The position numbers were made by a program, and so were the translations under genes. Of a DNA stretch of 64,000 bases, positions 43,757 through 60,762 are shown one piece after another. The notes under the pieces are model-generated. The model did no database searches, was not told the DNA's origin, and was given only the letters and a program-made list of their open reading frames with translations. This DNA is from Alphaproteobacteria bacterium (GTDB lineage Bacteria > Pseudomonadota > Alphaproteobacteria > Bin95): NCBI GenBank assembly GCA_963665325.3, contig CAXXWS020000002.1, forward strand, positions 544,001-608,000, in the 5' to 3' direction. Each line of letters starts with the position of its first letter. The first letter of the stretch is position 1.

Positions 43757-43779
43757 GGGTTGGACCGGGCGGAGATGAC

Positions 43780-43813: not shown

Positions 43814-43847
43814 GGGTTGGGGAGGAAGACAGGGAGGCGCGACGTCC

Positions 43848-44279
43848 TCAGAAGGGGATGTCGCTGTCGAGGTCGGCCGGTGCCGGGACGGGGTTCGACG
43901 CTGCGGGCTCGCGGTTGATGCCGAAGTCGTGGTCCTTGTCGAGGAACTGGATGCGTCCGCTCGGGACGACGAGGATCTCGGTCGAGTAGCGGTCGTTGCC
44001 GTCCTGGTCCTGCCACTTCCGGGTCTGGAGCTTGCCCTCGACCTGGACCAGCCGGCCCTTGACCGCCTTGCGCTCGAGGATGTCGACCAGGCCGTCCTGG
44101 AAGGTGGTGACGCGGTGCCATTCGGTCTTCTGGACGCGCTCGCCCCGGTTCTTGTCGTAATAGCCCTCGTCGGTGGCGATCGAGATATTTGCGACCTTCG
44201 TGCCGGTGGCGAGGTGGGAGATCGCGGCGGCGGCGCCGAGGCGACCGATGAGGAGGACCCTGTTCATTCCGAAAGCCAT
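43848..44279 (-). CDS. ssb: Single-stranded DNA-binding protein
   Basis: NRVLLIGRLG, TEWHRV and VEGKLQTRKW motifs; acidic DIPF tail. Confidence 0.93.
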   Translation of the reverse strand: MAFGMNRVLLIGRLGAAAAISHLATGTKVANISIATDEGYYDKNRGERVQKTEWHRVTTFQDGLVDILERKAVKGRLVQVEGKLQTRKWQDQDGNDRYSTEILVVPSGRIQFLDKDHDFGINREPAASNPVPAPADLDSDIPF

Positions 44280-44376
44280 GGGATGGCTCCTTCGTTGTCT
44301 GGATGTTGACTTGAGTTGGGAACCGGACGACCGGACCGGGTGGCCCGATCGTCATTCGGTTCATCCGTGACCGGCT

Positions 44377-44547
44377 CTACTCAAACTCTTCGATGTCGAA
44401 GCGTGCGCCGGCGGGAGGGTTGTCGGGCAGGATCTCGCGGATCGCGCGGCCGCTGAGCCCGATTTCGGAGAGCAGTTCGCCGGTGGTGCCGGACGCTGGA
44501 TGGTCGCGCGGCTTGACGTGCTCGGTGGCATCGAAGTCATGGAACAT
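44377..44547 (-). CDS. Small hypothetical protein (56 aa), possibly a gene remnant
   Basis: GGAAGG RBS then MFHDFDATEH... Confidence 0.35.
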   Translation of the reverse strand: MFHDFDATEHVKPRDHPASGTTGELLSEIGLSGRAIREILPDNPPAGARFDIEEFE

Positions 44548-44789
44548 GGAAGCGCCTTCCGTTGGAGTGGGCCCGGTGTGCCGGGCGTCTACGCGGAAAG
44601 GGCTTTGCTCAATCTCATGGCACCGTTTTTCGGTGCCAGGGCGCTTGCGTGGGCCTTCGGCGATAGGCCGACGGGGTACAAGCAGAAGGGCCGGCACTAC
44701 GTGAGCACCGGCCCTGGCAAGCGGCTGGTTGTGGCGGCGGGTCAGGGGATGAGCTTTACCGCGGCGCGTGCAGGTGTGGGAGCTAAGGT

Positions 44790-45236
44790 CTAGCTTGCTG
44801 GAGCGACACTTGGCGCGGTGTTCCGAATGAGGGCATCGAGGGCCTTCATGGTTTGCGTATGGCGCTTGTCGAGGGCCTTCATGACTTCCTCGTGGCGCCG
44901 TTCGCTTTCCGCGCGCTCGGCGGCAAGGGAAGCCATGGCTTCCTTGTGGCGATCGGCCTCGGCATTCATGGCTTCCTTGTGGCGGTCGCCTTCGGCCTCC
45001 ATGGCGTCCTGGTGGCGAGCGTCGCGCTTCTCGCTGGCTTCGGTCATCCTGGCTATGCCGCGGGCGACGACGCGGATCTGGAAGAAGCCGATAACGCATC
45101 CGGCGACGACCAGGGCGGCGGTAACGATGACGAGGGCGGCGGTGACGGTCACCATGTCGCCGGTGGCGATGGCGGTAGCGGCTTGCGGATTCGTTGGCGC
45201 CAGCGTTGTTATGTCGGTGAAGAACATTTCGTACAT
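44790..45236 (-). CDS. Membrane-anchored coiled-coil protein with 11-aa repeats
   Basis: One TM segment followed by DARHQDAMEA/GDRHKEAMNA/ADRHKEAMAS repeats; AGGAGG RBS. Confidence 0.6.
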   Translation of the reverse strand: MYEMFFTDITTLAPTNPQAATAIATGDMVTVTAALVIVTAALVVAGCVIGFFQIRVVARGIARMTEASEKRDARHQDAMEAEGDRHKEAMNAEADRHKEAMASLAAERAESERRHEEVMKALDKRHTQTMKALDALIRNTAPSVAPAS

Positions 45237-45395
45237 CGTTTAGCCCTCCTTTGGCGGGGTCGCAAGTTGGCGCGGCGGGTGTTCCTTCCGCGCGAAGTCA
45301 CCCGTACGGGGCTGTCCTCTGCTTGCGGATCGCGACAGGGTGGCGGGTAGTTGCGGGCCGAAGGCCGCTGAACGGTGGCCGGCGGCGCATGCATG

Positions 45396-45425
45396 AAAAA
45401 GGCCGGCACTCATGGAGTGCCGGCC
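45396..45425 (-). terminator. Intrinsic terminator after the second ssb
   Basis: Minus strand GGCCGGCACTC-CAT-GAGTGCCGGCC-TTTTT. Confidence 0.8.
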
Positions 45426-45446
45426 AGCTGGGGGAGGAAAGGTCCG

Positions 45447-45878
45447 TCAGAACGGGATTTCAGGCGCCGGGCCCGACGGCGGCGGGGCTGCCGCTTCCGC
45501 CGGCGGCCCGGAGGCGGGCGCCTTGTCCTCGGGACGGTCGAGGAACTCCATGCGGCCTTCCTGGTTGACGACGATCTCCATGGTGTAGCGGTCGTTGCCG
45601 TCCCGGTCCTGCCATTTGCGGTGCCACATCTTGCCGGAGACGAAGATCTTGCGGCCGCTCGAGCCGTGCTTGTCGAGCAGTTCGATCAGCGACTTCTGGA
45701 AGGTCACCACGCGGTGCCACTGGGTGCGTTTCACGGTCTCGCGCGCGTTCCGGTCCCAGTAGCTTTCGTCGGTCGCGACGGAGAGCGCTGCGACCCGGTC
45801 TCCGTTCTGCATCGTACGAATTTCGGGATCGTGCCCGAGGTGACCTATGACCTCGGCGCGATTCAGTCCATATGCCAT
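45447..45878 (-). CDS. ssb: Single-stranded DNA-binding protein, second paralog
   Basis: LNRAEVIGHLGHDPEIR and TQWHRVV motifs; EIPF tail; AGGAG RBS. Confidence 0.92.
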   Translation of the reverse strand: MAYGLNRAEVIGHLGHDPEIRTMQNGDRVAALSVATDESYWDRNARETVKRTQWHRVVTFQKSLIELLDKHGSSGRKIFVSGKMWHRKWQDRDGNDRYTMEIVVNQEGRMEFLDRPEDKAPASGPPAEAAAPPPSGPAPEIPF

Positions 45879-45943
45879 CGGTATGCTCCTGCATGGCTGG
45901 TTGACGGGCCGCAGGGGGATTCTGCGCTGTTCGGAGTCCGGGA

Positions 45944-46396
45944 TCAATCGCCGGGACGGGCGCCAGGGACGGGGAGAGTTTCGAGCTCGGGGAACCGGCG
46001 ATCGCGATAGACCTGTCCCAGGCTGACGAGCTCGAGGGCGCTCCGGTGCGGGGGCATCAGGCATATCATGCGCCGGACCCGCTCCCGGGCGACCTCGAGG
46101 CGGCGCCGCTCGTGTCGTATGGCATGGTCGCAGCGCTTCGCCCGGGCGGCAGCCTCGGCGATGTTGCTCCAGAGGATCGGCAAGGGAGGGTCGGCCCGGT
46201 CGAACGCGGCGCCGACGGCCTGCCATTCCGCGAGCGCCGCATCGCGCTCGATCTCGGCCGCCCGAAAGTCATCGGCGCCAGGCGCCGGATGGCCGTACCA
46301 GTGCGGGATGGCAACGTGCGAACGGGAGCCGGCCGCCTGCGGCCGGGGAGGCCCCTCGCCGTGGAAGGGAAGGACGAGCTGAATGGGCATGGGCAA
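45944..46396 (-). CDS. Hypothetical protein
   Basis: 150-aa ORF with AGGAG RBS, co-oriented with its neighbours. Confidence 0.5.
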   Translation of the reverse strand: MPMPIQLVLPFHGEGPPRPQAAGSRSHVAIPHWYGHPAPGADDFRAAEIERDAALAEWQAVGAAFDRADPPLPILWSNIAEAAARAKRCDHAIRHERRRLEVARERVRRMICLMPPHRSALELVSLGQVYRDRRFPELETLPVPGARPGD

Positions 46397-46411
46397 GGCT
46401 CCTGGACGGTG

Positions 46412-47410
46412 TCAGGCACGGGACGTGCAGCCGAGACACTGGCGGATGGCGTAGGCGCCGCCGGCGGCGAGGTCCTCGTTGAAGTCGCCAAGCTCGGGCG
46501 CCAGGACGCGGAAGCGGATCCCGCTCTGGCCGCAGCGCTTCGCGAGATTGTCCGCAGCTGCGCCGCCGTCGCGGCCGGCGTCCCGGGCGATAGCTACGCG
46601 CCGGCCGCGGGGAGGGACGAAGGCGCCGAGGCTGCCTGCGGACAGCGCGGCCGCGCCGGCGGCTCCGGGATATGCCGTGAGCAGCGAGAGAACGGTCTCG
46701 ATCCCCTCGCCGACGATCAGCACGGGATCGGGCCTTGCGTCGGCGGGTCCGAAGCGGACGGCCTGGCCATAGACGGGGCCGAGGGCCTTCTTCGGAGCCG
46801 GCACGTCGGCCTTCGCCGGCCGGTCCGGATCGAGGTAGGTGCGCAGCACGCCGGTGAGGCGGCCGGCGCCGTTCGTAACCGCGGCGACCAGGGCGGGATA
46901 TTCGCGCTGCGAGCTGCTGCCCGGGTCGCGGTAGCGGAGCTTCGGGTGGAACCGGAGCGAGGCGAACCGGCAGCGCTCGATGCCGCGCGCCTGCAGGTAG
47001 GCCTCGGCGTGGGTGCCGTCGATCGGCCGACAATAGCGCCAGAGGCGCAACGCGGCTCCGGAAGGATTGGCTTCGGCAGGACCGGCCGGCTCCGGCGCCT
47101 GGCGCGCGGGAAGTGCGAGGAAGGACCGGGCCTCGGAAAGGACGGCCGCCAGGCTGGTGCTGCGCGAATGGTGGCGAATGATGTCGAGCAGGTCGCCATG
47201 AGTTCCGTTCGCCATATCGTTCCATTTCCCGGGCCTTCCGGGAGCGCGGAGACGGACGATCAGCGAATGGCCGCGAGAGCCGTCGATATCGCCGACGACC
47301 CAGTAGCGCCCCTGGCGTTCGCCGGCGGGCAGATAGTGCCGGCAGACGTCCTCGGCTTGGGCGGCCAGGGCAGCGGCGATTTGGGTGGCGGGTGATGAGC
47401 AGGCATGCAT
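46412..47410 (-). CDS. Toprim-domain primase-like protein (DUF7146 + toprim) of alphaproteobacterial ICEs/plasmids
   Basis: VCRHYLPAG, GDLLDII, AEAYLQARGI, LRFHP, HPAL-like YPALVA, RTYL and VGEGIET motifs. Confidence 0.8.
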   Translation of the reverse strand: MHACSSPATQIAAALAAQAEDVCRHYLPAGERQGRYWVVGDIDGSRGHSLIVRLRAPGRPGKWNDMANGTHGDLLDIIRHHSRSTSLAAVLSEARSFLALPARQAPEPAGPAEANPSGAALRLWRYCRPIDGTHAEAYLQARGIERCRFASLRFHPKLRYRDPGSSSQREYPALVAAVTNGAGRLTGVLRTYLDPDRPAKADVPAPKKALGPVYGQAVRFGPADARPDPVLIVGEGIETVLSLLTAYPGAAGAAALSAGSLGAFVPPRGRRVAIARDAGRDGGAAADNLAKRCGQSGIRFRVLAPELGDFNEDLAAGGAYAIRQCLGCTSRA

Positions 47411-47611
47411 GGGAGTTCTCCCGGTTGGCGGCAGCACGAAAGGCGGCGGCTGCAAGGGCAGCGGCCGGGTTCGGCATCGATCGCGGTGGTGGTAGTGGCG
47501 CCGGGGGTCGGAGCGGCGCGGCGGCCGGCTGGTCGTCCGGAGCCCCGAAGGATTCGTCAGGCGGGCGCTTTACTCAAACTAGCCGATCCCTCTTCCGGTC
47601 GCCTTCATTAC

Positions 47612-47655
47612 AAAAAAAGGGCATGGACCGCTGGTCGATTGCAGCAGTCCATGCC
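47612..47655 (-). terminator. Intrinsic terminator-like hairpin
   Basis: Minus strand GGCATGGACTGCTG...CAGCGGTCCATGCC followed by a 7-T run. Confidence 0.65.
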
Positions 47656-47822
47656 GATCGGTGATGTGGATTGAGACTGTGGGTGAGGCGCGTTATTGGC
47701 TCATCGCAGGTGCCGGAAGGGGTAGGATATCGGTTGAAATTCCGGCGACCTGGCGAAAGGCGGAGAACGCTGCAGCAGCGTTGGTGGATGAAAGATGAGG
47801 CCGCAGCCGTTGCAGGGTGAGG

Positions 47823-48281
47823 CTACTCGTCCGCACCGCCGGTTTGAGGAGCAGGATCGTCGCTCAGCAGGTTGCGGGCGATGATGTAGCGCTCGATGAA
47901 GTCGAGCTTGCCGAGGATCGAGCCTTTCAGCTCGGCCTGGCCGGTTTCGAGGGAACGGAGACGCTCGTCGAAGCCGTCCATGCGATTGTCGAAGCGCTGC
48001 TCTAGGCCGTCGATGCGCTTGTCGAGTCGTTGCTCGAGTCCGTCCATGCGCTTGTCGAGTCCGTCCATGCGCTTGTCGAGGCTGTCGATGCGCTTGTCGA
48101 CGCCGTCGAAGCGCTTGTCGACGCCATCGAAGCGCTTGTCGACGCCGTCGAAGCGCTTGTCGACGCCGTCGAAGCACTTGTCGACGCCGTCGAAGCGTAT
48201 ACCGATCCCGTGATGGCCGCGAAGCATGAGTCCTGCGAGTGCCACGCCGACGGCGAGGATGGCGATCGTTTCCGGGGTCAT
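47823..48281 (-). CDS. Membrane-anchored heptad-repeat coiled-coil protein
   Basis: N-terminal hydrophobic helix, then (FDGVDKR)n and related heptad/11-mer repeats. Confidence 0.7.
   Translation of the reverse strand: MTPETIAILAVGVALAGLMLRGHHGIGIRFDGVDKCFDGVDKRFDGVDKRFDGVDKRFDGVDKRIDSLDKRMDGLDKRMDGLEQRLDKRIDGLEQRFDNRMDGFDERLRSLETGQAELKGSILGKLDFIERYIIARNLLSDDPAPQTGGADE
48090..48194. repeat. 21-bp tandem repeat x5 (coding VNTR)
   Basis: Unit GCGCTTGTCGACGCCGTCGAA, no spacers, encodes the heptad. Confidence 0.9.
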
Positions 48282-48368
48282 GTTGAAATCCTAGCAGGTT
48301 GGGGGTTGACCGTCATCCTGGAGTGGGTGACGACGGGTTCCAGGACTCCGTGTATGGAGCGACGCGGG

Positions 48369-48632
48369 TCAGTGAAGATGTCCGGGCGGGCGGCCGATGG
48401 ACATGCAGTCAGCCACAAAGCTGTGCCACGAGGTGCGATCGAAGCCGAGGCGGGCGTTAAGGCGATCGCAGATGGTGTTTGCGTCGCCGAGGTTGGCGGC
48501 GGCCATGTCGGTCGGGATGTAGCCGGCGGCGTTTTCGAAGACGATGATGATCCTCTGGGCGCTGGTTTCGGGGAGGTCGTAGGCGGGAGAGAAGGCGAAG
48601 TTGAGGGTGTGCGGAAGGGGTTGAGGGGTCAT
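48369..48632 (-). CDS. Small hypothetical protein (87 aa)
   Basis: ATG overlaps the PAPS-reductase stop (MTPQPLPHTLNF...). Confidence 0.55.
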   Translation of the reverse strand: MTPQPLPHTLNFAFSPAYDLPETSAQRIIIVFENAAGYIPTDMAAANLGDANTICDRLNARLGFDRTSWHSFVADCMSIGRPPGHLH

Positions 48633-49462
48633 GGGATCGACTCCGGGTTGACGGGGATTCCGGTGACCGCTGGAAGCGGCAGCCGGGTTGGGGAGAGGGT
48701 ATGGCCGATGCGGTGCTCGAGGGCGGCATACCGGGCGTAGAGCCGGGGGCGGAGTTCGGCAGCCCGGCGCAGGTCGGCGCGCGATGCGAGGATGCAGAAC
48801 GAGCAGCTCAGCCTGGTCATGCCGGCGGCATAGGCCCAGTGGGGAGACTGTCCCGCGCGTTCTATGGCGTTGAAGACTTCTGCTTCGGAGAAATCGAATA
48901 TGGGCAGCCAGTCGTGCCAGTCGCGGCCGGCCTTGCTGTTGCGGGCGTTGCGTGACCACGGAGTGCGCCTGGACCGATCGGTACTCTCGTCGGCGCGGAT
49001 GCCCATGCAGTTGACGATCCGGCCGGCAAATCGGGGATGTGCTGAGAGGTGCCGGCGGAGCTCGCGTTCGATGGGTCCGCGCTTGAAATCGCTGGTGCAG
49101 AAGCGCCGGCGCTTGTCCGGAAACAGCCCCCTCAGCTCGATGCGTTCGAGAAGGGACTGGCCGGAGGCGATCGGCGCGATGATGAGGGGCAGGCCGCGGG
49201 GCATGGTGGCCTCTATGTGGGAGATGGTGTCGGGCCATTCGACTTCGCCGAGCGGCGCGTGGACGATGACGATCCGGTCGTGGGGGATGAACCTTGACAG
49301 GAGGATCGTCATCGCCTGGCTATCTTTTCCTCCGCTGTGATTGATGGCGAACAGGGCACCGTCGCGGATCATGCGGCGGCAGGCGGGCGGTACGAGGAGG
49401 CGCCGCGCGGGAGGGGGAACGGGCCGGGCATTTTGCCCGACCGCGCCGGTTGGTTGGTTCAT
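48629..49462 (-). CDS. Phosphoadenosine phosphosulfate reductase family protein
   Basis: NHSGGKDS, RFCTSDFK, GIRADES.DR, WLPIF and RLSCSFC motifs. Confidence 0.88.
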   Translation of the reverse strand: MNQPTGAVGQNARPVPPPARRLLVPPACRRMIRDGALFAINHSGGKDSQAMTILLSRFIPHDRIVIVHAPLGEVEWPDTISHIEATMPRGLPLIIAPIASGQSLLERIELRGLFPDKRRRFCTSDFKRGPIERELRRHLSAHPRFAGRIVNCMGIRADESTDRSRRTPWSRNARNSKAGRDWHDWLPIFDFSEAEVFNAIERAGQSPHWAYAAGMTRLSCSFCILASRADLRRAAELRPRLYARYAALEHRIGHTLSPTRLPLPAVTGIPVNPESIP

Positions 49463-49489
49463 GGCGAGGTCTCCGGATCGGTCGCGGCG

Positions 49490-49826
49490 TCAGGCGGCGA
49501 CGGGCCATTGCTCGAGGACGCGGTCGAGGACGCGGGCTTCGGGAGCGAAGGTCCGGGCGCGCCATGAGATGATCTCGACGGTGCAGCCCATGCGTTTGAG
49601 GGCGGCGGTGTCGCGGTCGACGGGTCCCTCGATCTCGATGCGGTGCGCGCCCATGATGCGTCGCCTCGCGAGGCGCCAGCCGTTCGAGAGAGCGAGGGCC
49701 TTGCCCCGGTCCATGATTGCTTCGTAGGCGTCGGTGCCGGTCATGGCGGGACCGCCGTCGAGGCCAAAGGCCTGGCGGACGGCGCGGACCTGGTCGGCGT
49801 CGAGGACGCGCCCGAGGAGGGACAGT
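49490..49826 (-). pseudogene. 3' fragment of the strawberry-notch methylase/helicase split by transposon copy 2
   Basis: Removing the element and one ACAGT restores ...TTDDG-LSLLGRVL...GWRLARRRIMGAHRIE...EIISWRARTF. Confidence 0.88.
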
Positions 49827-49973
49827 TGAGCGGGCGCAGGCTTTCAGCGGCGATCAGGGGCTGATCGGCTCGGATTAATCGAGGTTTTGGATTGGGTGCC
49901 CCCCGGCGATCTTGCAAGAAGGCCGCCGGAGGGCTTGTCTCGGTGACAGTGACATCAACCTGAGACGGCCCCA

Positions 49974-50588
49974 ATGTCGCACAAGCTGTTCCGGCACTCC
50001 AATCTCTCCAACGCCCGGGTTTGGGATTTTCTGAAGCAGGTCGACGCGGCCGAGGCGGAGGCGTGCCGGGCGGCGGGTTGCCCGCGCTGCGGCGGCGCGC
50101 TTCACAGCGCGAGCTACCCGCGCAAGCCGCACGGTCTGGCGGCGAATCTTCGGAACGACGTTCGGCGCTTCAGCCTGTGCTGTTCGGTGTGCCGACGCCG
50201 CGTGAAGCCGCCGTCGGTGCGTTTCTTCGGCAGGCGCTTTTACGTCGGGGCGCTGTTCCTTGTGGTGAGTGCGCTGGCTGTGGCCGGCGGCGCGCGGTTG
50301 CAGACGATCGCGCGGCGGTGCGGGGTTCCGGCCTCGACGCTGAAGCGCTGGCGGCGCTGGTGGCTGGAAGCCTTCCCGCTGACCCGGGAGTGGCAGGCGA
50401 GACGGGGCGAGCTGGCGGCGCCGCCCGAAGAGGCGCCGCTGCGCCGGCTGCTGCGCATCATGCGGGGCCGTGGCTTCCGCTCGCGGCTGCTGCGGAGCCT
50501 GGTCTGGCTGATGCCGTGGACCGGCTTTTGCGCGCTCGGCGCAGGTCCGGCTTCGCCCGCAGAAAGCGTTTCTATGATGCACGGATAG
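49974..50588 (+). CDS. Zn-ribbon plus HTH protein (transposon ORF1)
   Basis: Identical translation to 42432-43046. Confidence 0.7.
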   Translation: MSHKLFRHSNLSNARVWDFLKQVDAAEAEACRAAGCPRCGGALHSASYPRKPHGLAANLRNDVRRFSLCCSVCRRRVKPPSVRFFGRRFYVGALFLVVSALAVAGGARLQTIARRCGVPASTLKRWRRWWLEAFPLTREWQARRGELAAPPEEAPLRRLLRIMRGRGFRSRLLRSLVWLMPWTGFCALGAGPASPAESVSMMHG

Positions 50589-50636
50589 GGCACCGCATCA
50601 TCGGCACCTCCACGAAGCAGCGAGGGGGATGCCGGA

Positions 50637-52112
50637 ATGAACAGCAACGACGGGAGCGAGCGTCGCGACCGGTGGGCGCGGTTGCGCTTCGCGGTGGTCG
50701 GGCCGCTTCTGGCCTCGCCGCCGCCGGCGGGGCGGCTGCACGCCGAGCTTGAGCGGCTTGCCGAACGCGAGTGGGATCACCCGTCCGGCAAGGGCCGGGT
50801 GCGCTTCGCGGTGTCCACGATCGAGCGCTGGTACTACCAGGCGCGGGCGGCGGACAACGATCCGGTGGGGGCGCTCAAGCGGCGCCCGCGCGCCGATGCC
50901 GGGCGCCCGCGCGCGATGTCGCCGACGCTGATCGAGGCGCTGCACGAGCAGTACCGGGCGCATCCGTCGTGGTCGGCGCAGCTTCATCACGAGAATCTGG
51001 CCGCGCGGGTCGAGGCCGATCCCGAGCTCGGCCCGATACCGTCCTACGCGACGCTGACCCGGGCGATGCGGGCTCGCGGGCTGGTACGCAAGCGCCGGCG
51101 CAAGTGGCATGAGAGCGAGGCCAGGCCGGCGGTCGAAGCCCGCGAGGTATTGAGCTACGAGGTCTCGCGCTCTCACGCCCTGTGGCACGCCGACATGCAC
51201 AGCGCCAAGCGTCGCGTGCTGACCGCCTCGGGCGAGTGGAAGACGCCGATCCTGCTCGGCTTCCTCGACGACCACTCGCGCCTCGGCTGCCACCTTCAGT
51301 GGTACCTCGCCGAGACCGCCGAGGTGTTCGTCCACGGCCTTTGCCAGGCCTTCATGAAGCGCGGTCTGCCGAGGTCCCTGCTGACCGACAACGGCGCGGC
51401 GATGACCGCGGGCGAGGTCGAGGAGGGGTTGCACCGGCTCGGCATCGCGGGGGTCACGACGCTCGCTTACAGCCCCCATCAGAACGGCAAGATCGAGTCG
51501 TTCTGGGGCACGGTCGAATCGCGCCTGATGGCTCAGCTCGAAGGCGTCGACGCGCTTACCTTGAAGATGCTCAACGACGCCACCATCGCCTGGCTGGAGC
51601 AGGACTATCACCGCCGCAAGCACCGCGAGCTCGGCATGACGCCGCATCAACGCCTGGCCGGGAGCGTCGACGCGTCGAGATCCTGCCCCGGCTCGGCCGA
51701 GCTCAAGGCGGCCTTCCGCATCACCAGGAAGCGCACGCTCAGGCGCTCGGACGGCACCGTCTCGGTCGAGGGCATCCGCTACCAGGTGCCACAGCCGTGG
51801 CGCCACCTGCGCGAGGCCTGGATCCGTTACGCGCGCTGGAACCTCGCCAGCGTCGATCTGATCGACGGTCGAGGCGGCGAGCGCCTGTGCACGCTGTACC
51901 CCCTCGACAAGCGCGGCAACGCCGATGGCGTGCGCCGTCCCGCCGGCCCCGGCGGCAACGATGGCAATGGCGGCGCGGGGACGGGGGAACTTCCGCCGCT
52001 GCTCAAGGGCATGCTCGACGCCCAGGCCGCAACCGGCCTGCCGCCGGCCTGGCTGCCCCATGACAAGACGCCCGGTCCGGGCGAGGACGAAGATCGGGGA
52101 GATGCGCCATGA
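50637..52112 (+). CDS. DDE transposase/integrase (ORF2)
   Basis: Identical translation to 40908-42383; D-D-E triad intact. Confidence 0.92.
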   Translation: MNSNDGSERRDRWARLRFAVVGPLLASPPPAGRLHAELERLAEREWDHPSGKGRVRFAVSTIERWYYQARAADNDPVGALKRRPRADAGRPRAMSPTLIEALHEQYRAHPSWSAQLHHENLAARVEADPELGPIPSYATLTRAMRARGLVRKRRRKWHESEARPAVEAREVLSYEVSRSHALWHADMHSAKRRVLTASGEWKTPILLGFLDDHSRLGCHLQWYLAETAEVFVHGLCQAFMKRGLPRSLLTDNGAAMTAGEVEEGLHRLGIAGVTTLAYSPHQNGKIESFWGTVESRLMAQLEGVDALTLKMLNDATIAWLEQDYHRRKHRELGMTPHQRLAGSVDASRSCPGSAELKAAFRITRKRTLRRSDGTVSVEGIRYQVPQPWRHLREAWIRYARWNLASVDLIDGRGGERLCTLYPLDKRGNADGVRRPAGPGGNDGNGGAGTGELPPLLKGMLDAQAATGLPPAWLPHDKTPGPGEDEDRGDAP

Positions 52113-52942
52113 ACCGGGAACTGCTCACCTTCTACGGGCTCAAGTGGAACCCCTTCGCCACCGACCTGCCGGTCGACAGTCTCATGGCGACGCCTGCCGT
52201 CGACAGCTTCTGCCTCAGGATCGAGCGCCACCTGGTGCGCCAGGGCGGCTTCGCCTTGATCGCCGGCGAGCCCGGCGCCGGAAAGAGTGTGGCGTTGCGC
52301 CTGCTCGCCGACCGTCTCGGCCGCTGCGAGGGGCTCAGCATCGCCGCCATCACCCATCCCTCCTCCCGGCTGTCCGACTTCTACCGCGAGATCGGCGAGA
52401 TGTTCGGCGTCGACCTGATGTACAACAACCGCTGGGCCAGCTTCAAAAGCCTGCGCGAGCGCTGGCTCGCCCATGTCGACGATACCCGCATGCGCCCCGT
52501 CGTGCTCGTCGACGAGGCCCAGGAGCTGCTGCCCTCGGTGTTCTCCGAGATCCGCCTGCTGGCTTCGACCGACTTCGACTCGCGCGCCATCCTCTCGGTC
52601 GTCCTCGCCGGCGACACGCGCCTGCTCGACAAGCTCCGCCAGCCCGATCTGCAGCCCATCGCCTCGCGCATCCGCCAGCGCCTGGTCATGACCAAGGCCG
52701 AGGCCGGCGACCTCGCGGCCCTGCTCGACCATCTGATCGAGCAGGCCGGCAATCCCGGCCTCATGACCGCGGGCCTCAAGGACACCCTGGTCGCCCATGC
52801 CGACGGCAACCCGCGGGCGCTCACCGTCATGGCCGACGCCCTGCTCGCCGCCGCCGCCGAGAAGGAGCGCGAGGTCCTCGACGAGAAGCTCTTCATCGAG
52901 ACCCTGGGCGAACCCGCCAAGCCGAGGAGGGCGCGGCGGTGA
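52109..52942 (+). CDS. ExeA-family AAA+ ATPase (ORF3)
   Basis: Identical translation to 40078-40911. Confidence 0.85.
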   Translation: MNRELLTFYGLKWNPFATDLPVDSLMATPAVDSFCLRIERHLVRQGGFALIAGEPGAGKSVALRLLADRLGRCEGLSIAAITHPSSRLSDFYREIGEMFGVDLMYNNRWASFKSLRERWLAHVDDTRMRPVVLVDEAQELLPSVFSEIRLLASTDFDSRAILSVVLAGDTRLLDKLRQPDLQPIASRIRQRLVMTKAEAGDLAALLDHLIEQAGNPGLMTAGLKDTLVAHADGNPRALTVMADALLAAAAEKEREVLDEKLFIETLGEPAKPRRARR

Positions 52943-53937
52943 AGGGCTTCCCGACACGGGCGCCGGCGGAGCTCGAAGAGCGCCCCCAGGCGCGCCGCTG
53001 GATGGTCGAGGCGTTGTGGTCCGAGCAGGGCGTCGGCATCGTCGGCGGCGAGCCCAAGTGCGGCAAATCCTTCCTCGCACTCGACATCGCCGTCGCGGTC
53101 GCCGCCGGCGTCCCCTGCCTGCGCCACTTCCGTCCCGCCGCAAGCGGCCCCGTGCTGCTGTTCGCCGCCGAGGACGCCGGCCATATCGTGCGCGCACGCC
53201 TCCAGGGCATCGCAAAGGCGGCAGGCACCGCGTTCGAGACCCTCGACATCGCCGTCATCGACGTGCCCACGCTGCGTCTCGACCATCGCGCCGATCGCCA
53301 GCGCCTGGTCGAGACGGTGGAGCGCGTCTCACCCCGCCTCGTCGTCCTCGACCCCCTCGTGCGCCTGCACGGCGTCGACGAAAATACCGTCGCCGAGGTC
53401 GCCCCCATGCTGGGCTTCCTGCGCGACATACAGCGCCGCTTCGAAACCGCCGTCCTCCTCGTCCATCACGCACGAAAGAGCGGCGGCTCCCGGCCCGGGC
53501 AGGCGCTGCGCGGCAGCAGCGAACTTCACGCCTGGGGCGATTCGAATCTGTACCTGCGCCGGCGAGACCGCCAGATCCTCATGACCGTCGAGCATCGCGA
53601 CGCCCCTGGCCTCGAAGACCTCGAGATCGAACTCGCCGACGACGACGAGCGCCCCGCCCTGCGGTTGCGCGAGACGCCGGAAGACCAGGCGCCGGAGCCG
53701 GATACCCCCGAACGGCGCATCCTGCAGGCCCTCGCCGACGCCGACGCGCCGCTCTCCCAGCGCCGGATCCGCGAGCGCGCGGCAACCCGGCCCGCAACCG
53801 TCGCCGAGGCGCTGCACAGGCTCGTCCGCGAAGGACGCGTCGAGCGCGCATCCGAAGGCGGATACCGCCTCGCCGCCCTCAACGGCAACGACCGCAGGGA
53901 CACGTTACCGAAAACCGTTACCGCCTCGAACCCCTAG
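52939..53937 (+). CDS. AAA_25/RepA-like helicase with winged helix (ORF4)
   Basis: Identical translation to 39083-40081. Confidence 0.75.
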   Translation: MKGFPTRAPAELEERPQARRWMVEALWSEQGVGIVGGEPKCGKSFLALDIAVAVAAGVPCLRHFRPAASGPVLLFAAEDAGHIVRARLQGIAKAAGTAFETLDIAVIDVPTLRLDHRADRQRLVETVERVSPRLVVLDPLVRLHGVDENTVAEVAPMLGFLRDIQRRFETAVLLVHHARKSGGSRPGQALRGSSELHAWGDSNLYLRRRDRQILMTVEHRDAPGLEDLEIELADDDERPALRLRETPEDQAPEPDTPERRILQALADADAPLSQRRIRERAATRPATVAEALHRLVREGRVERASEGGYRLAALNGNDRRDTLPKTVTASNP

Positions 53938-54103
53938 GGAGAGAGGGTAACGGTAACGGGTAACACCGCTCCCATTGTCACACTGCGTAAAGCGGCCGGC
54001 CCGTGGCCGGAAGCTTGCTTACGGCCATGGATGCACTCCGTCGGAGGGACGGCGGCGGGTCACCCGAAGGGCCGGAGCGCAGCGCAGGAGCCGCGAAGCG
54101 GCT
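53903..54103. other. Origin-like region: opposed GTTACC/GGTAAC hexamers and GNA-loop hairpins (mirror copy at 38917-39117)
   Basis: CGTTACCG at 53903 and 53916; CCCTAGGG palindrome at 53932; GGTAAC at 53946, 53952 and 53959; hairpins CCC-GAA-GGG, GC-GCA-GC and AGCCGC-GAA-GCGGCT. Confidence 0.5.
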
Positions 54104-54210
54104 TGACGCGCCGACGGCCGTCCGACACCCCCGCCGTCACGCCCGGCCCGACGCCTGAAAACCATCGAACAACGTGACCATCCCGCCATCAGATACCGAG
54201 AGCACACTCA

Positions 54211-57200
54211 ACAGTCCGTCATCGGTGGTGAGACGGCGGACGCGCATGTTGTCCGAGGGCAGACGGTCCCAGATGGGAAGCAGGAGCCCGGCGGCGAGCC
54301 AGAAACGCGACTCCGTATGGGTCGGGAGCTGCGAGGTCTCGTGCTCCCAGAGCGTGCGCCAGGTCTGCGCATCGGCGGGTTGCCAGTTGGACGAGACGAG
54401 CTCGGCAAGAGCCATGGTTTCGCGTGTGGCGGGCCGTAGGAGGCGGACGCGTTCCAGGACGGCGCCGTCGTCGGATATCCGCGAGGGTGCGGGAATTCTG
54501 ACGGCGGCGCGCCTGGAGCGCTGGTTGACCATCAGGATGGGGTAGCCGTCCGTGTCCGGGTGTTGGCGCCCGCTGGCAAGGGCAGACTCCGGGGTGGTGG
54601 GCTGGAGCCGGTCGCGGCGCTGGATCTCGACGATCTCCATGATCGCGCCGGTGGCGGGGTGCTCGTAGAGCGTTTCGCGCCCGGTGGCGGCAAGGGAGTC
54701 GGCGCGGACGGTTTCGACGCCCACCTCGAAGGAGCCGGCTTCGATTGCCTGCTCGATATTGGAGGCGATGCGGTTCTCCAGCTCCGCAAACAGCTGGTTC
54801 TGTTCGGCGATGGGCAGAGCCAGGAGACGGTTGAGGAAGCGGGGCATGGGCGGCAGGTCGTCCTTGAGCCCGCCTTCGTGCACGATCTTGAGCCCGGTCG
54901 ACTCCTGGAAGCGTTCGATGTTCCAGTCCTCGATCCTGCCGCGCCAGAGCGCGCTGTAGAATTGGCGCAGAGCCGCCTTGGCATAGGGGCTCTCCAGGTT
55001 GTCGCTCTCGCGGAACAGCGCGGCGTCGCTGCCGCCCATGGCGGTCTGGCTGTCGCGCTGGCCGCGTGTGATGGCGCCCAGGCTGTCGAGACGCCGCGCG
55101 ATGGTGGCGATGAACCTTCGCTCGCCCTTCACATCCGTGGTGACGGGGCGGAACAGCGGTGCCGAGGCCTGGTGCGTGCGGTGGGTGCGCCCGAGCCCTT
55201 GGATGGCCTGGTCGGCCCGCCAGCCGGGCTCGAGCAGGTAGTGGACGCGGCGCTGCGTGTTCTCGCAGCTGAGGTCGGCGTGGTAGCTGCGTCCCGTGCC
55301 GCCGGCCATGGAGAACACCAGGATGCGTTTGGTGCCGTCCATGAACGCTGCGGTCTCGGCGAGATTGGCCGATGTGGGGCGGGTGCGGAGCGCCAGGCGT
55401 TCGCCGTTCGCGTCGGCGATCCGCACGACCCGGCGCGAGCGGCCGGTGACTTCGGAGACGGCTTCGTGCCCGAAATGATGCACGACCTGGTCGAGGGCGG
55501 TCGGGACGGCGGGAAGTGCCGCCAGCTTCTCGATCAGCTCGTCGCGCTGGGCCTCGGCCTCGCGGCAGATGACGGGATTGCCGTCTTCGTCCGTGGCGGG
55601 CCGGCTCATCAGGTTGCCGTCGTCGTCGGTGAACGGCTCCTGCAACTGCACCGGGAAGGCGTGCATCAGGAACGAGAGGATGCCGTCCCTCGGGGTGAGG
55701 TCGATATTGAGGTCGTCCCACTCCGATGCCGGGATTTCGGCGATCCGGCGCTCCATCAAGGACTCTCCGGTGGAGACCAGCTGGATGACGGCGGAGTGGG
55801 CGGCTTCCAGGTCGGCCTCGATGGCGCGGATCAGCGAGGGGCACTTCATGCCGGTGAGCAGATGGCCGAAGAAGCGCTGCTTGGTGCTCTCGAAGGCGCT
55901 GAGGGCGGCGGACTTGGCGTTCTTGTTGAGCGTGTCCTCGCCCTGCACGATGCCGGTGGCCTTCAGGGCTTCCTCGATGTTCTTGTGGATGATCTTGAAG
56001 GCGCCGGCATAGGCGTCGTAGATGCGCCGCTGTTCGGGGGTGAGGGGGTGTTCGAGGATGTCGACCTCGATGCCGTCATAAGCGAGTGCACGGGCCTGGT
56101 AGAGGCCGAGCGCCTTCAGATCGCGGGCAACCACCTCCATCGCGGCGACGCCGCCCGCTTCCATGGCGGACACGAACTCGGTGCGTTTCTCGAAGGGAGT
56201 CTCGTCGGAGCCCCAGAGTCTGAGCCTGCCGGCATAGGCCAGGCCCGGAACGGTGGTCGCTCCTGTGGCGGAGACATAGGCGATCCGCGCGTCGGGCAAT
56301 GCGTTCTGCAAGCGCAGCCCCGCCCGGCCCTGCTGGGACGGCTTGACGTCGCCGCGTTCGCCCTTCGAGCCGGCGGCGTTGGCCATGGCGTGGGCCTCGT
56401 CGAAGACGACGGCGCCGTCGAATGCGAGCAGGTCCTCGTCCTCCAGGGAGCCGGCAAGCCACCTGACGATCTGGTCGAGGCGCGAGGGCTTGTCCTGGCG
56501 GGACGGGGAGCGCAGCGTGGCGTAGGTGGCGAACAGGATGCCCTCGGGATGCGGGATTTCGGCGCCCTGGCGGAACTTGCCGAGGGGTATGACCTGGTCG
56601 CTGTGGCCTCCGAGCGCAGTCCAGTCGCGCCGGGCGTCCTCGAGCAGCTTGTCCGACTGGGAAAGCCAGAGGGCCCGCTTTCTGCCCTGCATCCAGTTGT
56701 CGAGGATGATGGCGGCGACCTGGCGGCCCTTGCCGCAACCGGTTCCGTCTCCGAGCATCCATCCGCGCCGGAAGCGAACGGGGCGCGAGAGGGTCTCGCC
56801 GTCGGCGGTGAGCAGCGAAGTGTCAGGGACCTCGTCATCGCCTTCGGCAGACCGCTGCACGGTCTCCCATCCGGAGCCGATCCTGTAGAGGGCGGAGAGG
56901 TGGCCGGAGTGGGCTTCGCCGGCGAGCACGATGCTTTCGAGCTGGGCGTCCGACAGAAGGCCGTCCGAGAGGATGCGCCGGGGAAGGATCGGGCGGTGCG
57001 CGGGGACGGGTTGCGGCACGGCTGCCATTGCGGCGGACTGGACCAGCGGGGTCGGATGGGGAGTGGCGCCCTGTACGGAGACGATACCGGGGCGCCAGGG
57101 CTCATACGGGCCGGATCCGGTGGCGGCGGCAGCCGGGGGGCGGATCTCGATCGGAAGGGCGGCAACGGGGCCCCAGTCATGCGCCGACAGCGGCTGGGAG

Positions 57201-58348
57201 GGTGTGGTCTCCGGGTTGCCTTTACGGCGTGTCGTGACGGGCTTCGGGGCTGGTTTGCCGAACAGGTCGTTCGCGGGTGCGGCGGGGGATGCCGGCAGGA
57301 TCGTCAGCCGAGGAGGTATCGCGCCGGCGATCGCGGCGAGCAGCTCGGCTGCATTGGCGGCGTGCGCGTTGCGGTCGAGGGGAATCCCGGGCTCGTCGGA
57401 CCGGTCGATCACGGTAAGCCTGGTGTCGAAGCCGGTGCCGCGGCGGGCATAGGCGCGGCCGTCGATCGCCGTGGAGAATATGACCCGGGCGGCGGGGGAG
57501 AGGCTGGCGAAAGCGGCGTTCCAGTCGAGGCCGCCGGGGATGCAGGCTTCGGAGGTGATCGCGGCGAGGCGGCCGCCGGGCGGGAGCATCGAGAAGGCGG
57601 AGCGGACATGGTGAAGGTCGGCGTCGTGGCGGATGCGGTCGACGCCGGGTGTTGTCGAAAAGGGAGGGTTCATGAGGATGACGGTGGGCCTGACTGCCGG
57701 CAGGCGGTCGGCGATGGCTTCGGCGTTGAAGCGGGTGACCCCGGCGCCGGGAAAGAGTCCGGCGAGAAGGCCGGCGCGGGTCTGGGAATATTCGTTGAGA
57801 TGGAGGTTGCCGGACGCGTGGAAGCCGAGCGCGCATTCGGCCATGACGGCGAGCATGCCGGTGCCGGCGGACGGTTCGAGGACGACGTCGCCGGGGCGGA
57901 CGGCTGCGGCCTGGAGGAGGGCGTAGGCGAGAGGGAGGGGGGTCGAGAACTGCTGCAGGCGAACCTGCTCCTCGGAGCGCCTGGTGTGCGAGGGCTCAAG
58001 CGCCGCGATCGCCTCGAGCATGCGCAGCATGCGCGGCGGTCCTTCGTCGCCGGCGGTGCGGCGCATGTCGCGGCCGTACCGTTGCAGGAACAGGACGAGG
58101 GCGGCTTCGGCCGCTTCATAGGCGTCCTTCCAGAGCCAGGCGCCCTCGGCGTCGCTGGCGCCGAATGCGTGGATCATGGCCGCGCGAAGGGTGCCGGCAT
58201 GGAGCGGGCGGCCGGCGGCGAGGAACGGGAGGAGGGCGTGGGCCGCTGCGAGCAGGGAACCGGCATCGGTCGGTGCGGGGGCAGGATGGCTGGCATGGGC
58301 GGCAGTGGCGCGCGTGGCGGCGTCCGGCGCCGTGTGGGCGTCGAGCAT
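54211..58348 (-). pseudogene. Strawberry-notch family methyltransferase/SF2 helicase, 5' part (interrupted)
   Basis: QQFSTP, LEPSAGTG and NPPF (amino-MTase) motifs; GDGTGCGKG, DEAH, SATG and QGLGRTHR helicase motifs. Confidence 0.9.
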
Positions 58349-58600
58349 GGAAAGCTCCGTTCTGGCGATGGAAGTGCAACGGCCGCGGGCGGATGGCCCG
58401 ACGGCTCAATGGATTCGCAGAAGGAGGGCTTTCCTGAAGCTCGACGGATGGGGGAAAGGCGGTGTGCGGGGGAGAAGGCGCGGCGGCTGGGTCGTGTCGG
58501 CGCAAGCAGGGCACGGATGTGTGGTGCGCAGCTGATGCGCGGTCCGCGCGCCGGTGCCCTTCAGGTCGCTGGTGACAGGCGATAGGGCGCGCAGTGGCGC

Positions 58601-59362
58601 CTAGAGGTGGCCCTGGTCCCGGAAGCTGGTCGCGCCGGTTGCCGTGATGATGATGTGATCGTGGATACCGATATTGAACAGCCGGGCGGCTTCGACGAGC
58701 CTCTTCGTGATCTCGATGTCCGCCTGGGACGGGGTCGGGTCTGTCGAGGGATGGTTATGTACGATGATGATGGCGCTGGCTTGCAGCTGAAGGGCGCGGT
58801 GCACGATCTCGCGGGGATAGGCCGGCGTGTGGTTGACGGTTCCGGTCTGGGAGCGTTCGGCCCGGATGAGGTGGTTGCGGTTATCGAGGAACAGCAAATG
58901 GAGCTCTTCGATAGCCTTGTAGCCGAGGCGTGCGCGGCAGTAGTCGACGACCTGGCGGTAGTTGCTGAGAGCGGGGTCGAGGCGGTCGGGAAGCTGCTCA
59001 GTGGCGAGCAGGATGCCGAGCGCCTCGGCAAGCTTGATCGCGCAAATACCGTCGCTGCCCAGGCCGGGAACCGTGGCGAGCTGGTCACGGCTGGCTGCGA
59101 GGACATGGGGAAGCGATCGGAACGAGGCCAGAAGGCTGTCGGCAAGGGAGAAGGCCCTGTCGTGGCCGAGAGATCCGCGAAGCAGAAGGGCGAGGAGCTC
59201 CCGGGACTGGAGGGCGCCCGGGCCGGCGCGAAGGAAGCGGGCCTTGAGGACTTCCATCGGTTTGCCCAGGGGCGGAGGCCTGGTTGAAACGGAAGTGCCG
59301 GGGTCGTTGCGGGAGCCGGTGGAGCCGGCCGGAATGGGGTGAGCGGCGGAGTCGAGAGGCAT
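58601..59362 (-). CDS. radC: RadC family JAB-domain protein
   Basis: ELLALLL, HhH motif, GTVN..PAYPREI, HNHPS.DP.PS.AD and DHII motifs. Confidence 0.9.
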   Translation of the reverse strand: MPLDSAAHPIPAGSTGSRNDPGTSVSTRPPPLGKPMEVLKARFLRAGPGALQSRELLALLLRGSLGHDRAFSLADSLLASFRSLPHVLAASRDQLATVPGLGSDGICAIKLAEALGILLATEQLPDRLDPALSNYRQVVDYCRARLGYKAIEELHLLFLDNRNHLIRAERSQTGTVNHTPAYPREIVHRALQLQASAIIIVHNHPSTDPTPSQADIEITKRLVEAARLFNIGIHDHIIITATGATSFRDQGHL

Positions 59363-59408
59363 CGCGGTGATTCCTTGCAAGGCAAGTGAGGCAAACAGGG
59401 GATGGGGC

Positions 59409-59918
59409 TCAGGCGGCGTGATCGGCGAGCACCTGCATCGTGTAGCTGCACTCGGTGTCGCATTCGCCGCATAAGGCGGTCGCCTCATAGGTGCTGTGAA
59501 GCTCCCAGCGTTGGGCGGCTGTGTCCCATTCGGCCCAGGCGTCGACGAGAACCCGGGTGCTGCCGCACGTGTTGCATGTGGGCTGGAGGGGCGCGCCGGC
59601 GTCGAGGGCCTTGCGGGCATAATCGGCGAGTTCGCGGATGTGCGAGTGGACAGGCGGCCGCACGGAGCCGGAGAGAATGCTCTCGTGCAGGCGGTCGAGG
59701 CCGATCGTGAGAGCGACGAGCGGCGGCCGAAGGTCGTCCTGGCGGCGGCAGCGGTCGTCGAGCATTGCGGCGCCGCGGCAGCCTTCGAGGGGGCATTCGC
59801 CGGCGGGCATGACGTCGCCGGGCTGGACGCGGTCCCATAGGTCGCGAAGCTCGCGGGTATCATCGGCGGGTCCGTGCCACCCGCAGGCCTGGCAGGTGGC
59901 GGTTTCGGTGGCGGTCAT
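59409..59918 (-). CDS. Hypothetical Cys-rich (Zn-finger) protein
   Basis: CQACG, MPAGECP, CNTCGS..V.VDAWAEWD and CGEC motifs; AGGAG RBS. Confidence 0.65.
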   Translation of the reverse strand: MTATETATCQACGWHGPADDTRELRDLWDRVQPGDVMPAGECPLEGCRGAAMLDDRCRRQDDLRPPLVALTIGLDRLHESILSGSVRPPVHSHIRELADYARKALDAGAPLQPTCNTCGSTRVLVDAWAEWDTAAQRWELHSTYEATALCGECDTECSYTMQVLADHAA

Positions 59919-59929
59919 GCGGTTGCTCC

Positions 59930-60271
59930 TCAGGCCGGGCGCAGGGCGCGGTTGCGGAAGGTCGATAGTGCGCGGGTGACGGTCAGCTCGTCGGCGCCGG
60001 CGGCGGCTCCCCAGCCGCGCAGGTTGCGCTCGAAGTCCTCGACGGAGCCGAGGTGAAGATCGAAGAAGGGGTTGTCGCTGGTTGATGCCAGGACGGAACT
60101 GCCGGCGACGGAAATGTCCGTGATCGCGGGGTCGGTCACGGGTTCGGCGCCGATGAGCCAGCAGAGAAATGCTGCGAACATGGGCGACAGGGACTCGCCG
60201 CGGCGGGGGTCCATCGGGTGCGGTTTCGGCAGTGGGTCGATGGGGTGAGGCGGCATGACGGTATCGGGCAT
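59930..60271 (-). CDS. Hypothetical protein
   Basis: 113 aa, GAGGAG RBS, co-oriented with the operon. Confidence 0.6.
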   Translation of the reverse strand: MPDTVMPPHPIDPLPKPHPMDPRRGESLSPMFAAFLCWLIGAEPVTDPAITDISVAGSSVLASTSDNPFFDLHLGSVEDFERNLRGWGAAAGADELTVTRALSTFRNRALRPA

Positions 60272-60757: not shown

Positions 60758-60762
60758 GGCGG

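Follow-up and report, generated by a model that had tools for sequence, protein, structure and literature searches.

The window analysed here, 64,000 nt of DNA from the genome of an Alphaproteobacteria bacterium (five contigs, 5.58 Mb), contains two identical copies of a 4384-bp transposon with four open reading frames (ORF1 to ORF4). The element has recently moved, is active, and is present in many copies. Its last gene, ORF4, is predicted to encode a ring-helicase-like ATPase with a winged helix, and this helicase cassette is the new part of the element, the transposition genes being already known from the Tn6049 lineage. We would give about even chances to the reading that ORF4 and the region downstream of it constitute a portable cassette for replication in the service of transposition. 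The reading builds on a helicase of the RepA/DnaB kind, a domain that may read repeats, a neighbouring Toprim gene or structured block, and the lack of a second-strand nuclease or a resolvase. The more far-reaching version, in which a widespread family of DDE transposons would carry a complete portable cassette for replication initiation (a RepA-type helicase reading the repeats at its stop codon, and either a single-strand priming signal or a Toprim primase), would replicate itself without the host primosome, and would have passed the cassette to unrelated backbones by capture, is more tentative, and the chances are somewhat against it.

Boundaries, copies, and recent movement of the element

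The complete element spans positions 49827 to 54210 of the window on the plus strand (copy 2), and an identical, inverted copy is located at positions 38810 to 43193 on the minus strand (copy 1). Both copies are 4384 nt long and form the 100% complementary arms of an inverted repeat with a spacing of 6633 nt. Direct repeats of at least 200 nt were not found in the window. The original prediction had described two identical copies and a clean duplication of ACAGT at copy 2, and both descriptions were right, the duplication being present on the left (49822 to 49826) and on the right flank (54211 to 54215). In addition, contigs from two public runs of related organisms (X16 and X17) join position 49821 to position 54211 and omit 4389 bases, which correspond to the element plus one ACAGT, so that a single ACAGT remains at the empty site. 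Because these contigs represent the unoccupied site, the exact boundaries and the mobility of the element are seen directly.

The element begins with TGAGCGGGCGC at the 5' end and terminates with GAGCACACTCA at the 3' end, and these TG..CA termini have 8 of 11 bases in common. At the left end (49827 to 49890, plus strand) the terminal repeat TGAGCGGGCGC is accompanied by the subterminal motifs CTGATCGGC and TCGAGGTTTT, and the reverse complement of the right end (54150 to 54210, plus strand) reads TGAGTGTGCTC..CTGATGGCG..TCGATGGTTTT. Thus, the weak terminal repeats and both subterminal motif pairs (CTGATCGGC/CTGATGGCG and TCGAGGTTTT/TCGATGGTTTT), which had been proposed earlier, are all present. 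The terminal repeat and the subterminal motifs of the left end are probably binding sites of the transposase. An end of the form TGAGCG.GCGC is kept in related elements from other genomes.

Across the genome there are 24 copies, comprising 21 identical and uninterrupted ones, two with a 1-bp insertion or deletion (indel), and one that is interrupted. Together with the empty site in X16 and X17, these near-identical copies bear out the recent mobility that had been suspected. Read in the orientation of the element, the target duplications have a length of 5 bp in ten, 4 bp in eight, and 6 bp in two copies, and are missing in four; their sequences do not have a consensus. The 5-bp duplication is therefore not the fixed trait for which it had been taken, and its length varies from 4 to 6 bp. 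Near-identical DNA of the element was not found in PLSDB.

Several copies have their own peculiarities. The two copies with a single 1-bp indel are located at C1:503215-507597 and C3:175650-180032 (contigs of the genome are numbered with the prefix C), and the indel in the former disrupts the reading frame of ORF2, where the tblastn match splits near 505176/505284. The interrupted copy (C1:2290596-2297053) is split by a 2070-bp insertion, presumably another insertion sequence (IS), with a 4-bp overlap at positions 4108-4111 of the element, and retains its own 5-bp duplication CATGG. Copy 1 of the window has no target duplication, its flanks in element orientation being CCGAG and CCGGG. The 400 bp of its left flank (38410 to 38809) are 100% identical to C1:1971835-1972234, and because this paralogue continues differently beyond the flank, copy 1 sits at a rearrangement junction. 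An inverted paralogous segment of the window (1265-3159 versus 36861-38809, 86-95% identical in three pieces) also ends exactly at copy 1 (38809/38810). In addition, C1:446362-446548 and C1:452255-452362, about 6 kb apart, are short, diverged fragments (70-86%) of the left end, the 3' end of ORF4, and the structured block described below, and seem to be what is left of a related, older element.

ORF4 is predicted to be a ring helicase

ORF4 (52939 to 53937, plus strand) starts with GTG and encodes 332 aa, which are predicted to fold into an ATPase of the RepA/DnaB/RadA type (about residues 10-245) and a C-terminal winged helix (about residues 257-311). The AAA_25 model matches with an E-value of 4.6e-36 and 124.7 bits versus a cut-off of 27. 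In a sequence search of the PDB, RepA of RSF1010 (1g8y) was the sole relative (E=2.4e-8, residues 35-196), and the alignment matches the GKS, AED, VLD, HHA.K, and RGSS stretches of the two proteins. K40, K43, E78, D79, D138, and R191 are invariant in 58 full-length ORF4 homologues that are 35-51% identical, and H176, H177, and K180 are conserved in at least 90% of the same sequences. Based on the names used in the RepA literature, we take these residues to include the Walker A lysine, the catalytic glutamate, the Walker B aspartate, the sensor histidine, and the arginine finger.

The AlphaFold2 model of ORF4 (pLDDT 91.1) retrieved pneumococcal RadA (8rxc, E=3.7e-12), RepA (1nlf/1g8y, TMt 0.72-0.75), and DnaB (4esv) as top Foldseek matches with a probability of 1.00. 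RSF1010 RepA (1g8y, 1nlf) has the same fold and belongs to the same AAA_25 family; however, it does not have the C-terminal winged helix, and its identity to ORF4 in the structural alignment amounts to only about 19%. Among the PHROGs, ORF4 matches the helicase parts of phage primase-helicases. On sequence and model, ORF4 is thus best described as an ATPase of the RepA(RSF1010)/DnaB ring-helicase-like type with a winged helix, for which helicase activity is predicted, and the earlier description of ORF4 as RepA-like holds. A prediction of a complex of ORF3 and ORF4 returned "no answer" with a score of 0.00, which weighs neither for nor against binding.

The first rank of RadA in the structure search could also mean that ORF4 is a RadA-like branch-migration motor that helps host recombination to resolve cointegrates. 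Such a role would suit an element in whose four ORFs no resolvase domain was found and of which two copies, located on different contigs, have swapped flanks. However, the matches to RepA and DnaB are statistically equal to the RadA match, by sequence only RepA was found, and the zinc-finger and Lon-like domains that belong to the architecture of RadA were not found in ORF4. The primase-like gene that can accompany ORF4 (see below) would also be left unexplained, and we regard a RadA-like role as highly unlikely.

ORF4 belongs to a very populated part of sequence space. An exhaustive library search yielded 38184 matches at E<=0.001 and 489 clusters at E<=1e-30. Close homologues comprise 7823 proteins with E<=0.001 among 8000 candidates scored, the best 120 of which are 72-99% identical. 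Many homologues are found on contigs of 2-5 kb, as is expected of repeated elements.

The transposition genes are related to those of Tn6049

The first three genes of the element are located at 49974 to 50588 (ORF1, 204 aa), 50637 to 52112 (ORF2, 491 aa), and 52109 to 52942 (ORF3, 277 aa), all on the plus strand; the mirrored ORF1 to ORF4 of copy 1 are found at 42432-43046, 40908-42383, 40078-40911, and 39083-40081. ORF1 combines a cysteine-rich N-terminus (CxxC...CCxxC) with an HTH_23 domain (Pfam, 3.4e-6), and clusters with DUF6431/HTH_23 appear among its look-alikes in the atlas, which provides a lead only. ORF2 is a DDE transposase composed of HTH_32, rve, and rve_3, all of which score below the Pfam cut-offs (e.g. 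27.4 versus 32.6 bits). With 123.9 bits versus a cut-off of 224, the NCBIfam IS481 model NF033577 is still its top-scoring IS family. Classical IS481 members encode a transposase alone. ORF3 encodes an AAA_22 ATPase similar to ExeA/GspA/MuB (5.1e-20, 72.6 bits). ORF2 and ORF3 overlap by ATGA and ORF3 and ORF4 by GTGA, four bases each, and this coupling is retained in the relatives. The domain composition of the four genes and the translational coupling of the last three had been recognised correctly from the window.

In the PHROGs, ORF2 corresponds to a transposase (phrog_310, 2.4e-40) and ORF3 to a "DNA transposition protein" (phrog_296, 1.4e-23), in agreement with the proposed Mu-like combination of DDE transposase and AAA+ ATPase. 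Weaker tblastn matches of ORF2 include Staphylococcus and Listeria plasmids, and genes annotated with a "Mu transposase C-terminal domain". These matches support the assignment, by protein similarity, of the element to the DDE-plus-AAA+ type, related to the Mu/Tn552/Tn5053 group. Domains of resolvases, TnsA, TniQ/TnsD, and capsid proteins were not found in the four ORFs with Pfam and NCBIfam, as had been stated for resolvase, TniQ, and capsid.

The original prediction had named no characterised family with this layout, and this did not stand for the first three genes. Searching PLSDB with tblastn, ORF2 was found to be 50.4% identical over 94% of its length to sequences on the plasmids and the chromid of Cupriavidus metallidurans CH34. 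The annotated order in CH34 comprises a 181-aa "transposase", a 479-aa IS481-family transposase, a 277-aa AAA ATPase, and a 71-aa hypothetical protein, and the same order is found on pMOL30 and on pBPHYT01 of Paraburkholderia phytofirmans. ORF1 is 40% identical over 149 aa to the first, 181-aa gene of Tn6049, and ORF3 is 52% identical over 277 aa to the Tn6049 "gspA" ATPase. By the homology of these three genes the element is a member of the Tn6049 lineage.

Tn6049 has a length of 3.5 kb and is present in 12 copies in CH34, each with the "gspA" ATPase (PMC2864759). Its terminal repeats are imperfect and 12 bp long, and its duplication comprises 4 bp (PMC4739549). It has also been found on the Pseudomonas aeruginosa plasmid pHS87a. 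Both elements have TG...CA ends, short imperfect inverted repeats, and a short target duplication, are multicopy, and have their first three genes in common in the same order (40%, 50%, and 52% identity). They differ in what follows the ATPase gene. In Tn6049 this is only the small 71-aa ORF, without ORF4, repeat array, and structured block, whereas the 4384-bp element described here has the 332-aa ORF4 together with conserved non-coding sequence of about 270 bp. The 71-aa ORF does not derive from a decayed ORF4 (best E=1.7). The portions of the literature covered by our search deal with the occurrence of Tn6049, and no account of its mechanism was found in them.

With Tn552, Tn5053/Tn402, Mu, Tn7, and IS21 the element has in common a transposase of the rve fold, TG/CA ends, and an ATPase encoded just downstream. 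However, the accessory genes of the Tn5053 and Tn7 types (TniQ/TnsD, TnsA, and resolvase) were not found in its four ORFs, and its duplication varies from 4 to 6 bp instead of being fixed. To our knowledge, none of the Tn552/Tn5053/Mu/Tn7/IS21-type elements encodes a RecA-fold helicase. Mu itself uses PriA and DnaB of the host. The part of a review covered here (PMC11406308) does not list such an element with a RecA-fold helicase either. As far as the research literature was searched, a description of the four-gene layout was not found.

ORF4 is retained in most relatives and was captured by other backbones

Genome stretches encoding a relative of ORF4 were collected, and 80 of 140 loci were kept, of which 50 belong to type A and 30 to type B. 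The AAA_22 gene is located directly upstream of ORF4 in all 80 kept loci. In type A, ORF1 to ORF4 are all 63-91% identical to the element of the window. Because this sample was selected by ORF4, a second sample was obtained independently of it, namely 80 metagenome loci found by ORF2 alone, with 50% to 90% identity of ORF2. 60 of these loci are decidable, 16 are too short, and four end before ORF3. ORF4 is present in 55 of the 60 decidable loci, at no more than 150 bp from ORF3 in 54 cases, and is missing in five despite at least 1000 bp after ORF3. The identity of ORF4 follows that of ORF2 (r=0.83, n=55). In a FastTree of ORF2 and ORF3, the six rows without ORF4, including Tn6049, occupy three or more separate positions and are nested within the ORF4-bearing rows (four changes), which fits an ancestral presence of ORF4 followed by repeated loss. 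By this distribution, a test that had been proposed earlier, ORF4 is a core gene and not a passenger.

A counterargument would be that ORF4 is cargo with a task outside transposition, for example in defence, anti-defence, or interference with plasmids. Tn6049 and a few relatives multiply without ORF4 (for Tn6049, PMC2864759), and ORF4 has been exchanged between backbones like a cassette. However, PADLOC does not contain a family that matches ORF4, and cargo genes normally vary among related transposons, whereas ORF4 is found in 55 of 60 relatives in a constant, coupled position and diverges together with the transposase. In addition, cis-elements seem to have co-evolved beside it. A function as cargo is therefore very unlikely in our view.

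The exchange between backbones is seen in the type B elements. These have a length of about 4.4 kb, TGTTGT ends, and duplications of 4-5 bp, and encode a 214-aa ORF without Pfam match, a 453-aa transposase (HTH_32, rve, rve_3, and Mu-transpos_C), and a 267-aa AAA_22 ATPase. The first ORF has no BLAST similarity to ORF1, and the transposase and the ATPase are only 28-29% and 26-28% identical to those of the element here, versus 74-79% for ORF4. In a tree of ORF4, computed as a quick IQ-TREE search, the type B sequences form one clade (support 100) within that of type A (supports 96-100). At the nucleotide level, the two types are homologous (78-80%) from the start of ORF4 to about 78 bp short of the right end, a stretch that comprises ORF4 and about 195 bp, and the final roughly 78 bp are backbone-specific and have no counterpart in type B. 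Because the homology is limited to ORF4 and the 195 bp downstream of it, both have moved as a unit, and a second backbone has, by sequence comparison, captured the ORF4 cassette independently. A third backbone (L180 and L182) combines an equally distant transposase with a 46%-identical ORF4 right after the ATPase. When 401 genomes of the phylum were searched with the type B transposase, nine genomes matched, on short contigs; two of these loci have ORF4 after the ATPase, two do not have it despite at least 640 bp of room, and the others are undecidable.

A single long-read assembly of an Alphaproteobacteria bacterium (L015-L043 and L077-L094) accounts for at least 27 type A and at least 14 type B elements among the 80 kept loci. 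Thus, two backbones sharing one helicase cassette have both expanded in the same genome. The taxa named for the ORF4 loci comprise Alphaproteobacteria, Chloroflexota, Acidimicrobiales, and Acidobacteria. The plasmids of PLSDB do not contain an ORF4 relative at E<=1e-10 (tblastn), and this absence may explain why the cassette has gone unnoticed.

Repeats, structured block, and primase-like gene downstream of ORF4

The end of ORF4 coincides with an array of hexamer repeats (53904 to 53964), in which two GTTACC units (53904-53922) and three GGTAAC units (53946-53964) flank the palindromic centre CCCTAGGG. The centre of the array is the stop codon of ORF4. In relatives down to about 50% identity an array is found at the same place, with GGGAAC or GGAAAC units and often as a full pair of inverted triplets. 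The variable base of the repeat follows residue 285 of ORF4, with which the predicted recognition helix begins. The context RP at residue 285 is combined with GGTAAC in 7 of 7 cases, RN with GGGAAC in 8 of 8 type A cases and in addition in the rows L107, L144, L150, and L172 of the distant clade, and RA with GGAAAC in 2 of 2. These combinations are suggestive of a winged helix that reads the hexamer repeats.

Further downstream, a non-coding block of about 130 nt (53999 to 54124, plus strand) is conserved in types A and B and seems to fold into a hairpin and a three-way domain. In an alignment of 13 sequences with 49 pairs, 96.4% of the cells are paired. Compensatory pairs were counted eight times, compared to 3.7+-1.3 in shuffled alignments (0 of 500 reached this number) and 0-3 in slid controls. 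Compared to shuffles, only the plus strand is more stably folded (z=-3.2, versus z=-0.67 for the minus strand). Rfam did not yield any match at E<=1 across the element. A promoter scan gave no sites and a terminator scan three, which is no more than in shuffles and none of which lies in the block, and the block does not have a terminator-like T-run. A covariance model of the block found it in all 24 copies and one remnant of this genome. Among 151 genomes of the class the model matched in three others, one of the matches being full-length. This lone block (L197:10001-10170, corresponding to G406:C1:1619143-1619312; E=7e-16) does not have homologues of ORF1-4 or of the primase-like gene within 10 kb, is preceded by two tyrosine-integrase genes 2-4 kb upstream and followed by a DUF772 transposase gene, and is uninformative on function.

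Instead of the block, ORF4 can be followed by a 289-aa primase-like gene with DUF3991 and Toprim_2 domains. Of 18 distinct type A lineages, seven have this gene and ten the block (7 found by blastn and 3 by the covariance model), none has both, and one is too short. In the clade of about 50% identity a primase-like gene (37% identical) occurs at one locus, and 15 loci are too short. In two type A loci (L045:2496-3197 and L102:4111-4853) about 570-590 nt separate the ORF4 repeats from the block, so that the cassette can accept an insert there. The primase-like partner gene, the repeat array, and the structured block make, as far as sequences can tell, a replication role for ORF4 more likely.

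The same region has to be considered for another possible role of ORF4, that of a target selector or copy-number regulator in the manner of TniQ, TnsD, or TnsE instead of a helicase. ORF4 holds the place that TniQ has in operons of the Tn5053 type, it is coupled to an AAA_22 ATPase, and residue 285 of its winged helix follows a repeat inside the element. Moreover, the insertions are clustered. Eight of the 24 copies are found within 120 kb at C1:1.98-2.10 Mb (GC skew about +0.15), seven of these in the same orientation, and three copies within 67 kb at C3:531870-598210, in and just upstream of the window, among genes of the conjugative-element type. This clustering could reflect local hopping, a tolerance of island DNA, or targeting. 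However, the residues shared with RepA are invariant in the 58 sequences and would be needless for a pure DNA-binding adaptor, the repeats apparently read are located inside the element and not in its targets, the target duplications do not have a consensus, and the Toprim primase-like gene as alternative neighbour fits replication and not targeting. We thus consider a selector or regulator unlikely.

A possible role of ORF4 in transposition

If ORF4 and its downstream region are a replication cassette, transposition could proceed as follows. The transposase and the ATPase would make a strand-transfer (or copy-out) intermediate. Binding of the winged helix to the repeats would position ORF4 on the element, which ORF4 would then unwind. 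For the synthesis of the complementary strand, host enzymes could provide primers at the structured block in its single-stranded form, or the element could use a primase of its own where it encodes one. The DNA synthesis of transposition would thereby become independent of the host machinery for loading at restarted forks. As a speculation, if the plus-strand block close to the right end serves as a priming signal, it would suit the conversion of the plus strand displaced by a fork that enters from the left end.

In RSF1010, RepA differs from this arrangement in working together with a separate initiator (RepC), a separate primase (RepB'), and the sites ssiA and ssiB. The pri-rep-ori modules from pathogenicity islands of staphylococci, like the system of the alpha protein of phage P4, comprise a helicase with an origin-reading domain, 3' repeats, and a neighbouring primase gene. 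The logic of their layout resembles that of the ORF4 cassette. These systems use helicases of other families and are found on integrase-mobilised islands or phages, not on a DDE transposon.

The same layout could serve an excised circular form that is amplified from its own origin, consisting of repeats and block, before reinsertion, so that the ORF4 region would be a plasmid-like replicon. The transposase is closest to models of the IS481/IS3 type, which are known for copy-out circles. The repeats directly 3' of the helicase gene and the primase-like gene in seven lineages resemble an initiator-helicase beside its origin, the cassette moves between backbones as a unit, and the copy numbers are high, with 24 copies in this genome and no fewer than 27 plus 14 loci in the other assembly. 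However, a contig joining the right to the left end was not found in four runs, where contigs cannot reveal rare forms, and the element does not have a separate initiator or partition gene. ATPases of the AAA_22/MuB type are typical of target-capture transposition and not of IS3-type circles. In three runs the k-mer depth of the element contigs exceeds that of the flanking contig roughly 10- to 27-fold, which is compatible with many copies, and the value of about 27 in X15, a depth and not a copy number, fits the 24 chromosomal copies without any free circles. An amplified circle is therefore improbable.

Returning to the replication cassette that serves transposition, the strand-transfer model in particular, indirect hints of replicative products come from one pair of copies with swapped flanks and from two copies without duplications. 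In the pair, C2:25283-29666 and C4:930514-934897, the flanks are exchanged in such a way that CGACC is found on one side of each copy and ACGG on the other. This could be due to a cointegrate, to recombination between copies on two replicons, or to a choice made by the assembly across 4.4-kb repeats.

Several observations weigh against a replication cassette. The swapped flanks of C2:25283 and C4:930514 are equally well explained by homologous recombination or by assembly choice, 20 of the 24 copies look like simple insertions, and the contigs examined do not contain an end-to-end junction. Tn6049 and the 5 of 60 relatives without ORF4 imply that the helicase is unnecessary for the chemistry of transposition. 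The correlation between residue 285 and the repeats is partly confounded by shared ancestry, since related rows share their labels. In the clade of about 50% identity, 20 of 21 decidable lineages do not have the block or the primase-like gene by the same queries, so that conservation there would be limited to the helicase gene and the repeats. Because its sense strand contains G-U pairs, the block could be an RNA structure in the 3' untranslated region and not single-stranded DNA. The orientation of the insertions also does not have a clear bias with respect to GC skew. Compared to the skew of the 40-kb flanks, 16 copies are negative and 8 positive, these copies being clustered and not independent, the 27 type A copies of the other assembly split 12 to 15, and the cumulative skew of the genome does not have a clean origin/terminus pattern. 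Finally, because PLSDB does not contain any ORF4 relative at E<=1e-10, there is no annotated relative that would be experimentally tractable.

Genomic surroundings of the element in the window

Copy 2 has interrupted a host gene on the minus strand (54211 to 58348) that encodes a Strawberry-notch-like helicase of 1403 aa with AAA_34 and Helicase_C_4 domains. The insertion truncates this gene at its 3' end, and the ORF now reads to position 54137, inside the element. The regions 43194-49826 and 54211-64000 of the window also encode an SSB, a RadC-like protein, and an ORF with a HicA_toxin match at its C-terminus. The gene content around copy 2 resembles that of a leading region in conjugative elements.

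Significance

The hand-over from recombination to replication in Mu-type transposition is known in detail for Mu alone, which uses restart proteins of the host. If the proposed role of ORF4 is true, a family of transposons with a helicase gene of its own, accompanied in some members by one for a primase-like protein, would let this hand-over be studied as a natural experiment. Such a family could also account for the rapid multiplication of these elements, to dozens of identical copies, in phyla that are far apart. The cassette provides a proposal of function that can be tested for one branch of AAA_25, a very large family that is mostly unannotated, and the block adds a new structured nucleic-acid element without an Rfam family. 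For the bacterium itself, the 24 near-identical 4.4-kb repeats are a source of rearrangement, and of mis-assembly of its genome.

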